Positions 5,471-10,621 of a stretch of 64,000 nucleotides of DNA are shown here, piece after piece. The stretch's first letter is position 1; each line of letters opens with the position of its first letter. This DNA is from Escherichia coli (GTDB taxonomy: Bacteria; Pseudomonadota; Gammaproteobacteria; Enterobacterales; Enterobacteriaceae), in assembly GCF_030384885.1 (NCBI RefSeq), contig NZ_CP128613.1; one strand, given 5' to 3'. The notes under the pieces are model-generated. The model worked only from the letters and a program-made list of their open reading frames with translations, ran no database searches and was not told the DNA's origin. A program made the translations under genes and the position numbers.

Positions 5471-5803
5471 ATGAACCCTTATATTTATCTTGGTGGCGCA
5501 ATACTTGCAGAGGTCATTGGTACAACCTTAATGAAGTTTTCAGAGGGGTTTACACGGTTATGGCCCTCTGTTGGCACAATTATTTGCTATTGTGCATCAT
5601 TCTGGTTATTAGCTCAGACGCTGGCTTATATACCTACAGGGATTGCTTATGCTATCTGGTCAGGAGTCGGTATCGTTCTGATTAGTTTGCTTTCCTGGGG
5701 ATTTTTTGGCCAACGACTGGACCTGCCAGCCATCATAGGCATGATGTTGATTTGTGCCGGTGTGTTAGTCATTAACTTGTTGTCACGAAGTGCACCGCAT
5801 TAA
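5471..5803 (+). CDS. emrE: Small multidrug resistance (SMR) efflux transporter EmrE
   Basis: 110-aa product MNPYIYLGGAILAEVIGTTLMKFSEGFTRLWPSVGTIICY... inside track ORF 5291..5803; four hydrophobic segments; RBS-like aggaaag upstream. Confidence 0.85.
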   Translation: MNPYIYLGGAILAEVIGTTLMKFSEGFTRLWPSVGTIICYCASFWLLAQTLAYIPTGIAYAIWSGVGIVLISLLSWGFFGQRLDLPAIIGMMLICAGVLVINLLSRSAPH

Positions 5804-5971
5804 AAAATAATTATCCTTGAGACAACAGGAATGTAATTTGTGCATATTATGGCTAATGTTGAGGGCAACTTTATAATTATGATTGCATTTGCACGATCAT
5901 TGCGCCTTTATGCATAATGAGAGCAAGGCACATCAAATAAAATAACGATAGGTCACAACAAAGAGGTTTTT

Positions 5972-6523
5972 ATGAAAAAGCTTATCGTTTCAAGTGTATT
6001 GGCATTCATAACATTTTCTGCGCAGGCCGCAGCATTTCAGGTCACTAGTAATGAAATAAAAACAGGAGAGCAACTTACAACGTCTCATGTATTTTCTGGA
6101 TTTGGGTGTGAGGGGGGTAATACATCGCCCTCATTAACCTGGTCTGGTGCTCCAGAAGGCACCAAAAGCTTTGCCGTAACTGTGTATGATCCAGATGCGC
6201 CTACAGGCAGTGGATGGTGGCACTGGACGGTTGCTAATATTCCAGCAACGGTAACATATTTGCCCGCTGATGCAGGAAGACGTGATGGTACAAAACTTCC
6301 GACTGGTGCTGTCCAAGGCCGAAATGATTTTGGCTATGCAGGATTTGGTGGAGCATGTCCTCCCAAAGGAGATAAACCCCATCATTACCAGTTTAAAGTA
6401 TGGGCTCTAAAAACTGATAAGATTCCTGTAGATTCTAATTCCAGCGGAGCGTTAGTTGGTTATATGCTTAATGCCAATAAAATTGCAACCGCTGAGATAA
6501 CACCCGTTTATGAGGTAAAGTAG
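5972..6523 (+). CDS. ybcL: Periplasmic PEBP/RKIP-family protein YbcL
   Basis: 183-aa ORF with N-terminal signal peptide MKKLIVSSVLAFITFSAQAAAF; matches YbcL as I recall it. Confidence 0.8.
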   Translation: MKKLIVSSVLAFITFSAQAAAFQVTSNEIKTGEQLTTSHVFSGFGCEGGNTSPSLTWSGAPEGTKSFAVTVYDPDAPTGSGWWHWTVANIPATVTYLPADAGRRDGTKLPTGAVQGRNDFGYAGFGGACPPKGDKPHHYQFKVWALKTDKIPVDSNSSGALVGYMLNANKIATAEITPVYEVK

Positions 6524-6532
6524 GATAAGAGT

Positions 6533-7330
6533 ATGCTGGCAAAAGATAGGACTAACCTAAAGATTGAAGAAATACGGATGCATAAACATCATGAGATTCA
6601 CAGGGTTAAGCCTCTTATGCCAGCTTTATGTCGTATCCGTCAGGGAAAAAAAGTTATCAATTGGGAGACGCATAGTCTAACTGTTGATAATAATCAGATA
6701 ATATTATTTCCCTGTGGATATGAATTTTATATTGCGAATTACCCAGAAGCAGGTCTTTATCTTGCAGAAATGCTTTATTATCCCATTGATCTAATTGAAA
6801 AGTTCCAAAATCTTTATGCGATAACCGATCAAATTCGTAACACGACAGGTTTCTGCTTACCTCAGAATCCTGAGTTAATATATTGTTGGGAGCAACTAAA
6901 AACATCTATTTCCCGAGACTTCTCAACGCAAATTCAGGAACACTTAGCAATGGGCGTTCTACTTTCATTAGGAGCACATCATGTTAATTGTTTACTTTTA
7001 TCAGATAGTAAACAATCATTAATAAGTCGTTGTTATAACCTAATGCTATCCGAACCTGGAACAAAATGGACAGCAAACAAGGTAGCGAGATATCTCTACA
7101 TTTCTGTTTCCACATTGCATCGCCGTCTGGCAAGCGAGGGAGTAAGTTTTCAAAGTATATTGGACGACGTGAGGTTAAATAATGCGTTGTCTGCTATACA
7201 AACGACAGTAAAACCCATCAGCGAGATTGCCAGGGAAAATGGTTACAAGTGTCCTTCTCGTTTTACTGAAAGGTTCCATAATCGTTTTAAGATAACACCA
7301 AGAGAGCTAAGAAAAGCGTCCAGAGAGTAA
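6533..7330 (+). CDS. ybcM: AraC-family transcriptional regulator YbcM
   Basis: 265-aa ORF; C-terminal AraC-type helix-turn-helix region (...[41 protein letters not shown]...). Confidence 0.8.
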
Positions 7331-7339
7331 AAGTATTTT

Positions 7340-7459
7340 ATGAAGGAGCAACAGCATCGATTTTTATTTTGGAAAATAAATACGGCATACTCAACCTATT
7401 GGAGCCTGAACAATCCGGTGACTTCTGCGCTAATCGGGGACGTTTATAAGCACATATAA
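7340..7459 (+). CDS. Hypothetical 39-aa small ORF immediately after ybcM (possibly a ylcH-like small protein)
   Basis: ATG 7340 to TAA 7457-7459, MKEQQHRFLFWKINTAYSTYWSLNNPVTSALIGDVYKHI; below the ORF-track size cut-off; no independent support. Confidence 0.2.
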   Translation: MKEQQHRFLFWKINTAYSTYWSLNNPVTSALIGDVYKHI

Positions 7460-8019
7460 TTGATACTATCTTCCTCCATCACAATTTCAGAAATGCACGT
7501 GTGATTTTTTTGCATCCGGCGTTTGGACTATGTGGAGTTCAAGAGTGGGAAAGTTACAAGAGGTTGAGGGGATAATTAAAGGGATGCTTATGACATTAGA
7601 TATCCGGATAGGTACGGATATCGTTGTTATTAAATCTAGTTTATACGTTAAGATGCAGCTACAGCAGAAATTACCACTGTTAATTTTTTCATCGTGAGCC
7701 CTTTTATTTGTACTATTATTTAAAAATGATGTCACTGCACTACAAATACTCATCTAATCAATGAGATTATTTCAAGATGTAAGTTTTAGTTTCTCATTTA
7801 AATTGTGAAGCAGATCCCTCCTTTTATCTGAACTGTTTCTATTGTACACAATGCATGACTATTTTGTGAACGAATATAAATTTGGTAGTCAAATTATATT
7901 AAAGGTTGTTATTTATGATTGACTCATAATTTATTTTTTTAATTTAAATAACCTAATAATAACCATGGAGATTATTTGCATGATATTTGTTTAGACTTGT
8001 TAATGTAATTGAGGTGATT

Positions 8020-8694
8020 TTATTTAATACGCAATATAGCGCCGCTTGATATTAGTTCTATTTTTTTTTGCGTAAGATAGATGAGACAAACTGAGACGCA
8101 TAATGGTTTGCAAGGCTCTAATACTTTGATGTTGAGGATGTGATGGGGCATGTACGTGCATAGTACAATGATGTCCATGCCGGTGTAGATAATCTCCAGG
8201 CTTATCCGGTGCGCCGTAAAACCCCGTCCTTCAGGGCGGGGATATAAGGCGCGGTTTTCCACCTGACCAGGTGTTTGCTGTTGTTCAATGTATTGGCGGA
8301 TGACGGACATTGGCGCACCTCCGCAGCTACTGGCAAAATTGCCAGGACTCCACAAAACGCCTTTGTAGTAATACCTGACTGTAATATCTGGTCGATCTCG
8401 TCGCAGTAACCTACCCGATACGCCTTTGAGGCTGTTTACCAGACTGGATATCGCCAGTTTGGGAGGATAGTTAATTAACAAATGGACGTGATCTGGTTCG
8501 CCATCCATTTCAACCAGTTCAGCTTCAAAATCAGCACATACATTTGAAAAGTAAGTGCGTAGTTTTTCTGTCGCGTCATGGTCAAAAATCTGGCGTCGGT
8601 ATTTGGTGACAAAGACCAGGTGAACATGCATCAGGAAAACACAATGCCTTCCACGCCGGATATCGGTTTCTTTTTTCACAGACCAAAGTATCAT
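8020..8694 (-). CDS. tnpA: IS200/IS605-family HUH (Y1) transposase TnpA; conserved core is about aa 1-145, and the ORF continues a further ~80 codons with no stop
   Basis: HUH motif (DHVHLLINYPP), ...HVHLVFVTKYRRQ... and catalytic-Tyr region ...GGAPMSVIRQYIEQQQ align with IS608/IS200 TnpA; similarity ends near nt 8275. Confidence 0.7.
   Translation of the reverse strand: MILWSVKKETDIRRGRHCVFLMHVHLVFVTKYRRQIFDHDATEKLRTYFSNVCADFEAELVEMDGEPDHVHLLINYPPKLAISSLVNSLKGVSGRLLRRDRPDITVRYYYKGVLWSPGNFASSCGGAPMSVIRQYIEQQQTPGQVENRALYPRPEGRGFTAHRISLEIIYTGMDIIVLCTYMPHHILNIKVLEPCKPLCVSVCLIYLTQKKIELISSGAILRIK
8222..8241 (+). repeat. Left-end subterminal imperfect palindrome (hairpin) of the IS200/IS605 element
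   Basis: ccccgtcc-ttca-gggcgggg: 8-bp stem with one G:T position and a TTCA loop. Confidence 0.6.
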
Positions 8695-8701
8695 TTGACC
8701 T

Positions 8702-9910
8702 GTGAAACGATTACAGGCATTTAAATTCCAGTTAAGACCCGGTGGTCAACAGGAGTGTGAAATGAGGCGCTTCGCAGGCGCATGTCGTTTCGTTTTCAAT
8801 CGTGCTCTGGCGCTTCAGAATGAGAATCATAAGGCCGGTAAGAAATACATCCCTTACGGGAAAATGGCTTCCTGGCTGGTTGAGTGGAAAAATGCCACTG
8901 AAACGCAATGGCTTAAAGATTCGCCCTCACAGCCATTGCAACAGTCACTGAAAGACCTTGAGCGGGCTTACAAAAACTTCTTCCAGAAGCGGGCTGCTTT
9001 TCCCCGATTCAAAAAGCGGGGACAGAATGATGCATTCCACTACCCGCAGGGCGTTAAGCTCGATCAGGAAAACAGCCGTATTTTTCTGCCGAAACTTGGC
9101 TGGATGCGCTACCGGAATAGCCGTCAGGTCACGGGTGTTGTGAAAAATGTCACTGTCAGCCAGTCCTGCGGTAAGTGGTACATCAGTATTCAGACAGAAA
9201 GTGAAGTATCAACTCCGGTTCATCCTTCAGCATCAATGGTCGGGCTGGATGCTGGCGTGGCTAAACTCGCCACGCTGTCAGATGGCACAGTCTTTAAGCC
9301 TGTAAACAGTTTTCAGAAAAACCAGAAGACGCTGGCGAGACTTCAGCGACAGTTAAGCCGCAAGGTCGAATTCAGCAATAACTGGCAGAAGCAGAAACGC
9401 AAAATACAGCGACTGCATTCCCGTATCGCAAATATCCACAGGGACTACCTTCACAAAGTCACAACGACCGTCAGCAAAAACCACGCAATGATAGTCATTG
9501 AGGATTTGAAGGTCAGCAACATGTCAAAGTCAGCAGCGGGTACGGTCAGCCAGCCGGGGCGCAATGTCCGGGCAAAATCAGGTTTAAACCGTTCGATACT
9601 GGATCAGGGCTGGTATGAAATGCGCCGCCAGCTTGAGTACAAGCAGCTCTGGCGTGGCGGTCAGGTGCTTGCTGTTCCGCCAGCGTACACAAGCCAGCGT
9701 TGCGCGTGCTGTGGTCATACAGCGAAAGAAAATCGCCTGTCACAAAGTAAATTCAGATGCCAGGTATGTGGATATACAGCGAACGCCGATGTAAACGGCG
9801 CTCGTAACATTTTAGCGGCGGGGCACGCCGTTCTTGCCTGTGGAGAGATGGTGCAGTCAGGCCGCCCGTTGAAGCAGGAACCCACCGAAATGATTCAGGC
9901 GACAGCCTGA
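8702..9910 (+). CDS. tnpB: IS200/IS605-family TnpB (OrfB; RuvC-like RNA-guided nuclease family), apparently intact
   Basis: 402-aa ORF, GTG start at 8702. N-terminus [13 protein letters not shown].. resembles ISDra2 TnpB; RuvC-I (MVGLDAG), RuvC-II (IVIEDLKV), Cys4 zinc finger (CACCGH...CQVCGY) and RuvC-III ([10 protein letters not shown]) all present. Confidence 0.85.
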
Positions 9911-9970
9911 ACGTAGCAGGGATCCACGTCCTTCAGGGCGTGGAGGATGTCAACAAACAGGTTGAATTAA
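9790..9970 (+). ncRNA. Predicted TnpB-associated omega-RNA (right-end RNA): scaffold over tnpB 3' end plus right-end hairpin, guide from flanking DNA
   Basis: Inferred from the established architecture of TnpB elements; no sequence-level RNA model was fitted and the extent is approximate. Confidence 0.3.
9924..9943 (+). repeat. Right-end subterminal imperfect palindrome (hairpin) of the IS200/IS605 element
   Basis: ccacgtcc-ttca-gggcgtgg: same stem/loop layout as the left-end hairpin, including the G:T position; 14 nt after the tnpB stop. Confidence 0.6.
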
Positions 9971-10621
9971 CTCCGCGCCCTGGTTTTTGACATTACCCAC
10001 CGCGCGCGACACAGGGTGCCAGGTGAACTGGTTTGCTGGAACACAGCCACTGGCAGCAATTTCAGAGGCTTCTTTACCGCTAATCTCTTGCCGCATCCAT
10101 TCCCGCGCAGCTTCTGGCGACAGTACCAGCGGGCGGCGGTCATGAATATCTACCAGACCCTGGTCTGCTGCTGCAGTGACAATTAAAAATCCTTCGGCTT
10201 CGTCACCACGCTCAAACGGTGTGCTACCTATCGCGGCTATAAAAACAGGTTGTCCATCAGCGCGATAGATAAAATAAGGCTGTTTTTTGTCGCCTTCTTT
10301 TTTCCACTCAAACCAGCCATCGGCAAAACAGATTGCCCGACCATGTTGCCAGAGCGGTTTAAACATACGACTGGTTGCCGCAGTTTCTACGCGGGCGTTA
10401 ATCAGCGGCGGTTTATCCCACCATCCGGGAGCATATCCCCAGAAAACCGGATCCAGATGAAGGTGTTCATCACGTTCACTGAGCAGAAGAACTTTGGTTC
10501 CCGGCGCGACGTTGTATCTGCCAATAGGTTCGGGATCGTAGGGAATATCGCGTTCAATATCTTCCGCGAGAAGCGCAAGGTAATCTTCACGCGTTTGGGA
10601 TTGGGTAAAGCGTCCACACAT
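9950..10621 (-). CDS. yedK: SOS-response-associated peptidase (abasic-site processing protein) YedK
   Basis: 223-aa ORF starting MCGRFTQSQTREDYLALLAEDIERDIPYDPEP... (SRAP family, catalytic Cys2); C-terminus ...AELIQPVC sits at the IS right end. Confidence 0.88.
   Translation of the reverse strand: MCGRFTQSQTREDYLALLAEDIERDIPYDPEPIGRYNVAPGTKVLLLSERDEHLHLDPVFWGYAPGWWDKPPLINARVETAATSRMFKPLWQHGRAICFADGWFEWKKEGDKKQPYFIYRADGQPVFIAAIGSTPFERGDEAEGFLIVTAAADQGLVDIHDRRPLVLSPEAAREWMRQEISGKEASEIAASGCVPANQFTWHPVSRAVGNVKNQGAELIQPVC

Follow-up and report, generated by a model that had tools for sequence, protein, structure and literature searches.

Subterminal Hairpins of an IS609 Copy at the yedK Locus of Escherichia coli and Their Probable Roles in DNA and RNA

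Introduction

In IS608 of Helicobacter pylori, the transposase TnpA binds both subterminal palindromes of the element (PMC3201880). Each foot has a tetranucleotide guide on its 5′ side, and these guides recognize the cleavage motifs by base pairing, namely TTAC at 19 nucleotides (nt) 5′ of the left foot and TCAA at 10 nt 3′ of the right foot (PMC3201880). The left guide is AAAG and the right guide is GAAT (PMC3201880). The present work considers two hairpins near the ends of a copy of IS609, a catalogued element of the IS200/IS605 family, which is inserted beside yedK in the chromosome of Escherichia coli strain 2013C-4282. The copy was analyzed within a stretch of 64,000 nt (contig NZ_CP128613.1), called below the window, and all positions are counted along it.

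The second protein of such elements, TnpB, is associated with a guide RNA (omegaRNA), which has been described for ISDra2 of Deinococcus radiodurans. The cryo-electron microscopy structure of this RNA contains a hairpin with a UUUA tetraloop at -20 to -17, as well as a pseudoknot in which positions -5 to -3 pair with -103 to -105 (PMC10097598). A published model has TnpB cleaving the scarless donor joint, namely the transposon-associated motif (TAM) followed by the right flank (PMC8612924; bioRxiv 10.1101/2023.03.14.532601).

Both hairpins of the window correspond to recognition structures already described for the left and right ends of IS609, and the feature as such is already known. The titles and abstracts of the papers found on IS609 and insQ point to surveys that list the element and mention no work on its ends or on InsQ activity. 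The reading favored here, with high confidence, is that positions 8206-9953 form an IS609 copy with divergent tnpA and tnpB genes, that the hairpins are its subterminal imperfect palindromes acting in an IS608-type mechanism, and that the right hairpin is also a stem of the omegaRNA.

Identity and Boundaries of the IS609 Copy

The extent of the element can be read from alleles in which it is missing. In K-12 MG1655, there is no element beside yedK, and the site in the orientation of the window reads ATAATCTCCAGGCTTAT^CAAACAGGTTGAATT, where the caret marks the insertion point. The genome E7-1N7 carries the same left-hand island as the window, and its uninterrupted junction is identical to that of K-12, so that the empty site in both is GGCTTAT^CAAACAGG. 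The empty sites of the two genomes therefore define the element as 8206-9953 (1748 bp, + strand), inserted 3′ of TTAT without target duplication, with an ambiguity of 1 nt because C follows both junctions. The plasmid-borne copies align to the query solely over approximately 8202-9953. The cleavage sites and the target motif to the left, which the initial annotation had proposed to fix by comparing distances to conserved sequence, are thus given by the empty sites as ends at 8206 and 9953 and as TTAT at 8202-8205 (+ strand). This tetranucleotide belongs to the flank and not to the element; it precedes the left end in 13 independent insertions with an AAAA guide and is the predicted TAM of TnpB.

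The same evidence places the hairpins inside the element, as had been expected from their description as subterminal. The left hairpin begins 16 nt inside the left end, and the right hairpin stops 10 nt inside the right end, where it is followed by the tail AGGATG-TCAA. Such an arrangement agrees with the definition of the IS200/IS605 family in three respects. The imperfect palindromes are subterminal and lie on one strand, without terminal inverted repeats; the insertion is located 3′ of a short motif without a target-site duplication; and the choice of cleavage motif follows from tetranucleotide guides situated 5′ of each hairpin foot.

The identity of the element was judged against the feature annotated in NC_000913.3, where the IS609 mobile element at 1503161-1504908 is likewise 1748 bp long and is 97.4% identical to 8206-9953. 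A third copy, found within a TetR-family gene near ytfB, carries the RefSeq label “IS609 family”. Of 5426 complete E. coli genomes, 5372 contain sequence matching the query, which included short flanks, and the median is 2 places per genome. The yedK site itself is polymorphic: the junction of the right end with yedK was found in 667 genomes, the empty site of the K-12 type in 2357, and the empty site of the island type in 456. Further copies or derivatives consisting of hairpins only were sought across the chromosome of the window and a single matching place was found, so this chromosome holds one IS609 copy.

Subterminal Hairpins and Their Conservation

The left hairpin, CCCCGTCC-TTCA-GGGCGGGG, occupies 8222-8241 and has an 8-bp stem with a TTCA loop, and the right hairpin, CCACGTCC-TTCA-GGGCGTGG, occupies 9924-9943. 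Both lie on the + strand and share loop and stem layout, as the initial annotation had stated. When the window was searched with the pattern CCNCGTCCTTCAGGGCGNGG (up to 3 mismatches), just these two sites were recovered in 64 kb, while 0.02 are expected from shuffled sequences. The hairpins are alike at 18/20 bases, and the two differences, C or A at arm position 3 and its partner G or T, are compensatory and preserve the pairing. Folded as single-stranded DNA, the top strands adopt these hairpins with energies of -7.5 and -7.7 kcal/mol (z -2.3 and -2.9), and the folds of the bottom strands are slightly weaker, at -6.9 kcal/mol each. The G:T pair was considered as a discriminator between the strands and rejected, as the difference of 0.6-0.8 kcal/mol between top and bottom is too small.

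The conservation of the ends was examined in 57 loci encoding TnpB relatives, with one genome per species, together with further plasmid and E. coli copies. The hairpins, the guides G[GA]AT and AAA[AG], the spacer AGGATG, and the motif TCAA recur in over 40 loci that represent about 15 genera. In every copy, the right end opens with G[GA]AT; a hairpin with a stem of 8 bp and a loop of 4 nt, either TTCA or (in most relatives) TTTA, comes next and leads to AGGATG and TCAA, after which the flank is unrelated. The right stem varies with compensatory changes, for example, CCATGTCC/GGACATGG and CCTCGCCG/CGGCGGGG, and 4 of 10 pairs show such changes; the left palindrome is paired in 93.8% of alignment cells across 24 distinct sequences. 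Loss of the palindromes at the ends of homologous elements had been named in advance as the observation that would speak against the hairpins as element ends. Instead, position and pairing are both kept in more than 40 elements of Enterobacterales, with compensatory changes.

The spacer AGGATG and the right cleavage motif TCAA occupy 9944-9953 (+ strand), with cleavage predicted after 9953 from conservation and by analogy with IS608. The tail AGGATGTCAA is unchanged in 48/48 right-end copies, among them relatives whose TnpB is 61-63% identical and whose hairpin differs; since the 48-copy pattern itself fixes GGA[TG]GTCAA, the independent bases in this count are the wobble T and the base before it. 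The initial annotation had also noted a G:T position at the same place of each stem. In the window this is correct, with T opposite G at stem position 6 of both hairpins, but across the family it is near-constant for left ends alone. Among 24 distinct left hairpins, position 6 is T:G in 19, T:T in 4, and G:C in 1, whereas right ends may have T:G at position 6 or position 3 or lack it.

Several relatives depart from this layout. A different right hairpin of about 35 nt is found in L025-L030, L039, L040, L042, and L055 (Photorhabdus, Klebsiella, Pantoea), mostly at about 61-63% TnpB identity. The G[GA]AT guide is kept in 10/11 such divergent relatives (L040 has GGAG) and the AGGATGTCAA tail in all, and in some of them the left region also differs and carries a CCCGCC...GGCGGG palindrome. 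Four other loci (L034, L050, L051, and L052) are internally deleted and retain the right end together with the last 64-204 tnpB codons; in L051, a left-end fragment and the right end are about 400 bp apart. On their sequence, these four are possible non-autonomous elements. Among other yedK-linked copies, which are 98.3% identical, the commoner variant (L002, 4772-4805) has T:T at position 3 of the right stem (CCTCGTCC/GGGCGTGG), where the window has A:T, and its tnpA has ATT in place of ATG.

The left end contains an additional structure. An outer helix, TGCGCC (8210-8215) with GGCGCG (8248-8253), spans 8210-8253 (+ strand) and is paired in 97.9% of cells. Inside it lie the left hairpin and a 6x6 internal loop with the left guide, and one pair of the helix switches from C:G (17) to T:A (5). 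In the copy on plasmid pIso00270_02 (L066, 297-376), GTAAAA is replaced by TTATAT, so that the hairpin and the outer helix become one continuous long palindrome; the 5′ flank is TACC and not TTAT or TTAC, and both genes are annotated as intact. The outer helix and the near-fixed T:G mismatch of the left end may have uncharacterized roles.

Guide Sequences and Target Choice

The left guide tetranucleotide, AAAA (8218-8221, + strand), lies directly 5′ of the foot of the left hairpin. The right guide, GGAT (9920-9923, + strand), precedes the right hairpin as G[GA]AT in every copy, and many relatives carry GAAT in its place. The sequence 5′ of the left end is TTAT or TTAC in 24/25 aligned copies, the exception being L066. 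The choice between the two targets follows the guide: among 22 independent insertions, AAAA occurs with TTAT in 13 and AAAG with TTAC in 8, with 1 exception (Fisher p=2.8e-5). When distinct sequences are counted, the fourth target base and the fourth guide base form T:A in 12 cases, C:G in 8, and other combinations in 3. Such covariation is what would be expected if the fourth base of the guide pairs with the fourth base of the target.

The IS608 mechanism can be projected onto this copy. A TnpA dimer would bind the hairpins in single-stranded DNA, where AAAA would pair with TTAT in the left flank and GGAT with TCAA at the right tip. The guide pairing would place one cut 16 nt 5′ of the left hairpin and the other 10 nt 3′ of the right hairpin. 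The element would then exit as a single-stranded circle and reinsert 3′ of TTAT without duplication. Both the binding of TnpA and the cleavage chemistry are predicted here by analogy.

Two observations bear on this single-strand, peel-and-paste mode of movement. The first is the insertion polymorphism within E. coli. The second is strand orientation: the cumulative GC skew of the + strand is positive across the window, and therefore the top strand of the element is the lagging-strand template. This is the orientation expected for the IS200/IS605 family, as in IS608 and ISDra2.

Transposase Gene and Intergenic Spacer

The tnpA gene (8263-8694, - strand) encodes a Y1 HUH transposase. The protein matches Pfam Y1_Tnp with E=8e-40 (136 bits, cutoff 23) and contains both the HUH motif, in the form HVH, and a Tyr aligned to Y127 of IS608. 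Together with the TnpB protein, the conservation of the palindromes in homologues, and the boundaries given by empty sites, this supports the proposal that the hairpins are those recognized by TnpA in IS200/IS605 elements. An apparent loss of the catalytic Tyr, suggested by WSPGNF in place of the WSPSYF of a plasmid copy, was rejected, as IS608 Y127 aligns to the intact Tyr of QYIEQQ. The window TnpA has Asn for Tyr in the conserved WSP(S/G)YF motif.

The stop codon of the gene is lost. In 24 relatives, TnpA ends with QYIEQQ(Q/E)TP-x-stop (one has an extra residue, and the stop is TAG in the copies inspected), whereas positions 8263-8265 of the window read CAG instead of TAG. The open reading frame continues through the left end to 8020, giving 224 aa, in which the left hairpin is read as ...PRPEGRGF... 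and is followed by 62 codons of flanking DNA. The same loss is common to 5/5 IS609 copies of the E. coli lineage and is confined to them, and each has a different tail encoded by its flank. Private lesions are also present, such as an internal stop in K-12 and the loss of ATG in a strain labelled DH5alpha. Three comparisons within the lineage gave 17 non-synonymous and 1 synonymous differences in tnpA, and RefSeq marks the gene of the window as a pseudogene. From its sequence, tnpA appears to be decaying while tnpB is retained. The window copy has probably lost the ability to move by itself, given the missing tnpA stop codon and the lack of visible constraint on tnpA evolution in the chromosomal lineage of E. 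coli.

The start codons of the two genes require a correction. The longest open reading frames and RefSeq place them at 8694 (tnpA, - strand) and 8702 (tnpB, GTG), which agrees with the 7-bp gap initially reported, but this gap is specific to the lineage. In a comparison of 31 copies, the family-conserved tnpA start corresponds to the GTG at 8679-8677, which leaves a spacer of 22 bp. This codon is ATG in 24/31 copies, and it is mutated in four further copies, to GTG in other copies of the E. coli lineage and to ATA in L067. About 24 copies have, within the 22-bp spacer, a TATAAT box 8 nt upstream of the tnpB ATG and facing tnpB. The window has TATCAT at 8689-8694 (+ strand), a degenerate form of this box identified by the 31-copy comparison as a consensus match alone; the change of A to C creates an ATG at 8694 on the other strand and thereby the 7-bp gap.

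The element had further been called very compact, with promoters that must lie within coding sequence. The compactness is evident, but the second part holds only to a degree, since the spacer of the relatives contains a TATAAT facing tnpB: a likely -10 element for tnpB sits in the spacer and not in coding sequence. A promoter scan of the window found no convincing or full promoter between or near the start codons of tnpA and tnpB. Together with GTG at the conserved tnpA start and GTG as the tnpB start, where relatives have ATG, the TATCAT box suggests weakened expression signals.

TnpB and the Predicted OmegaRNA

The tnpB gene (insQ; 8702-9910, + strand) starts with GTG and encodes 402 aa with the Pfam domains HTH_OrfB_IS605, OrfB_IS605, and Cas12f1-like_TNB. 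The protein aligns end to end with ISDra2 TnpB (8H1J, E=1e-53). It has its full 402 aa in 9/9 copies compared, and when copies are compared with the window, the ratio of non-synonymous to synonymous substitution rates (dN/dS) of tnpB is 0.09-0.22 for distant copies, whereas those of the chromosomal lineage of E. coli give 0.28-0.43. The motifs GLDAG, IEDL, and NADVNGA place D, E, and D opposite GVDVG, GTEHL, and DRDENAA, taken here to be the RuvC catalytic motifs of ISDra2 with residues D191/E278/D361. Two CxxC pairs (CxxC...CxxC) complete a RuvC triad with a zinc ribbon.

The 3′ part of tnpB and the right end also fold as RNA. An RNAalifold consensus for the last 180 nt of 30 copies contains 43 pairs, 10 of them with compensatory changes, and defines a predicted omegaRNA scaffold at 9784-9953 (+ strand), which overlaps the 3′ end of tnpB and the right end of the element. 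Evaluated on the alignment from which the structure was derived, the fold is paired in 97.3% of cells, as against 42-53% with slid partners, and 0/500 shuffles reach the observed covariation. It includes the right hairpin and a predicted pairing of GGATGT (9945-9950) with ACATTT (9807-9812). The TTTA loop carried by most relatives in the right hairpin corresponds in place to the UUUA tetraloop of the ISDra2 omegaRNA. Rfam comparison of 9837-9966 returned matches that are all below threshold, namely HgcC (21.9 bits, threshold 50), sot0042 (18.9, threshold 88), and RAGATH-18 (25.4, threshold 44.9). The HgcC and sot0042 matches align strongly, almost base for base, over CCACGUCCUUCAGGGCGUGGAGGAUGUCA, that is, the right hairpin and its tail. 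These two are archaeal RNAs from tnpB 3′ regions, and the similarity would suggest a terminal right-end module conserved across domains.

In the proposed mechanism, the right hairpin would be the guide-proximal stem of the TnpB omegaRNA, and the guide would be the first ~16 nt of the right flank. The predicted guide, CAAACAGGTTGAATTA (9954-9969, + strand), belongs to the flanking DNA, where it forms the 3′ end of yedK on the opposite strand, and is unique in the window. In the empty yedK alleles, TTAT is directly followed by CAAACAGGTTGAATTA, and this joined sequence, TTAT-CAAACAGGTTGAATTA, is the predicted cleavage target of TnpB. The TAM TTAT, the guide, the expression of the omegaRNA, and the activity of TnpB are all projected from the known mechanism. 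On the evidence of its sequence, the right hairpin probably has two functions: in DNA it would be bound by TnpA, and in RNA it would belong to the guide of TnpB.

Alternative Explanations

The hairpins might instead act as intrinsic terminators of transcription, with the left one ending minus-strand transcripts of tnpA and the right one those of tnpB. At the left end the layout is suggestive: the minus strand reads CCCCGCCC-UGAA-GGACGGGG followed by UUUUAC, and the hairpin is located about 20 nt past the position of the tnpA stop in relatives. At the right end, the stem runs into AGGATGTCAA, which has no T run, and the scan called neither hairpin a terminator. Termination would also leave unexplained the fixed cleavage distances, the presence of the same stem on one strand at both ends, and the covariation of guide and target, and is distinctly unlikely as the explanation. 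As a secondary function, termination at the left hairpin may still occur.

More improbable still, and by a wide measure, is that the right hairpin is kept solely as a part of the TnpB omegaRNA, with no role in DNA recognition by TnpA. It does lie within an RNA fold supported by covariation, resembles the guide-proximal tetraloop stem of the ISDra2 omegaRNA, and has the sub-threshold alignment to Rfam RNAs from archaeal tnpB 3′ regions. The left end, however, is outside any omegaRNA and has nearly the same hairpin (18/20 bases), and in IS608 TnpA binds both palindromes (PMC3201880). Moreover, the roles in DNA and RNA are compatible and not exclusive. Finally, a chance pair or host repeats resembling repetitive extragenic palindromic (REP) sequences, unrelated to the element, would agree with nothing except the small size of the palindromes and are already refuted by the 2 matches against 0.02 expected, the lack of the hairpins in empty alleles, and their identical offsets in every homologous element examined.

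The assignment to an IS609 copy with TnpA-recognized ends is carried by its boundaries, by the conservation and covariation of both hairpins, by the covariation of guide and target, and by the families and motifs of the two proteins. Several points weigh against it. The locus L005, in which the hairpins themselves are damaged, breaks the guide/target rule, and the degenerate copies L022 and L037 fall outside it. The left spacing is 16 nt here and 19 nt in IS608. TnpA binding, excision, omegaRNA production, and TnpB cleavage are extrapolated from IS608, ISDra2, and Geobacillus elements. The intact reading frame of tnpB is no guarantee of nuclease activity, as HpyTnpB of IS608 was inactive in a published assay. 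With tnpA annotated as a pseudogene and a sole copy in the genome, the hairpins may be relics without current activity.

yedK and the Left Flank

In RefSeq, the tnpA pseudogene and insQ have ybcM as their left neighbor and yedK as their right neighbor. The TGA stop codon of yedK (9950-10621, - strand) was interrupted by the insertion, and comparison with K-12 shows that the stop was rebuilt: GTT TGA of K-12 corresponds to GTT TG|T TGA in the window (9948-9955). The new stop codon is the reverse complement of the terminal TCAA of the element. As a result, YedK has 223 aa (...QPVC) instead of 222 aa in K-12, with one Cys gained.

The region from fliE to yedK (5471-8205) contains copies of emrE, ybcL, and ybcM, where K-12 has yedL, yedN, yedM, and intG. 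Within an AT-rich stretch of this region, positions 7652-8030 are about 81% identical to a lambdoid-phage porin gene of the nmpC/ompD type, and the whole looks like a decayed prophage remnant. The right boundary of the island, which is independent of the element, falls 17 bp short of the insertion point. An arrival of the element together with the island was ruled out, as 456 genomes have the same island and an empty site.

Implications

The discovery value of the hairpins is small: IS609 already has its catalogue entry, and the combination of subterminal hairpins and tetranucleotide guides is a textbook trait of the IS200/IS605 family. The practical gain consists of the exact boundaries of the copy (8206-9953), the extra residue and borrowed stop codon of YedK, and the correction of the start-codon and promoter assignments. 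In addition, natural variation confirms the IS608 rule that the guide base of the transposon sets the target base, as AAAA goes with TTAT and AAAG with TTAC. For the InsQ nuclease of E. coli, a TAM and a guide can be predicted at the yedK locus.

A further idea, unlikely as it stands, is that the chromosomal IS609 lineage of E. coli is a transposase-dead element that persists through TnpB alone. In 5/5 copies of this lineage the tnpA stop is lost, yet the 402-aa tnpB, both ends, and the predicted omegaRNA fold are kept. The yedK copy is present in at least 667 of 5426 genomes, beside alleles that carry exactly its predicted TAM and target. If the idea were true, TnpB might bias the inheritance of the occupied allele in recombination, or might be on its way to domestication by the host.

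Comparison with Known Systems

The closest described copy is the IS609 of K-12, which consists of the yncK pseudogene and insQ. It is alike in length, gene order, right hairpin, left guide AAAA, and target TTAT, and it shares the loss of the tnpA stop and the intact 402-aa InsQ. It differs in locus, ydcL/ydcO instead of the yedK stop codon, in the internal stop of its tnpA, and in stem position 5 of the left hairpin, where it has A in place of G. The Asn for Tyr in the WSP(S/G)YF motif is found in the window copy in this comparison.

IS608 shares the subterminal imperfect palindromes on one strand, the 4-nt guides 5′ of their feet, the lack of target duplication, and TCAA 10 nt from the right foot. 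Its pair AAAG/TTAC is that of the AAAG subgroup of the IS609 family. The sequence of IS608 TnpA matches the window TnpA weakly (phmmer E=5e-20). The stem sequence differs, and an extrahelical T is found there in place of the T:G mismatch seen here. Here, tnpA is also inverted relative to tnpB, which is the arrangement of IS605 and IS606.

With ISDra2, the likeness concerns TnpB and its RNA. The proteins align end to end with Asp, Glu, and Asp at the RuvC motifs, and the guide RNA predicted here likewise extends over the 3′ end of tnpB and the right end; its tetraloop hairpin would precede the guide by about 20 nt, and its 3′ tail would pair with a distant upstream segment. In ISDra2, however, the long-range partner is at -105 to -103, whereas it is predicted at -147 to -142 here, and the TAM is TTGAT, in contrast to the TTAT predicted for the yedK copy of IS609.

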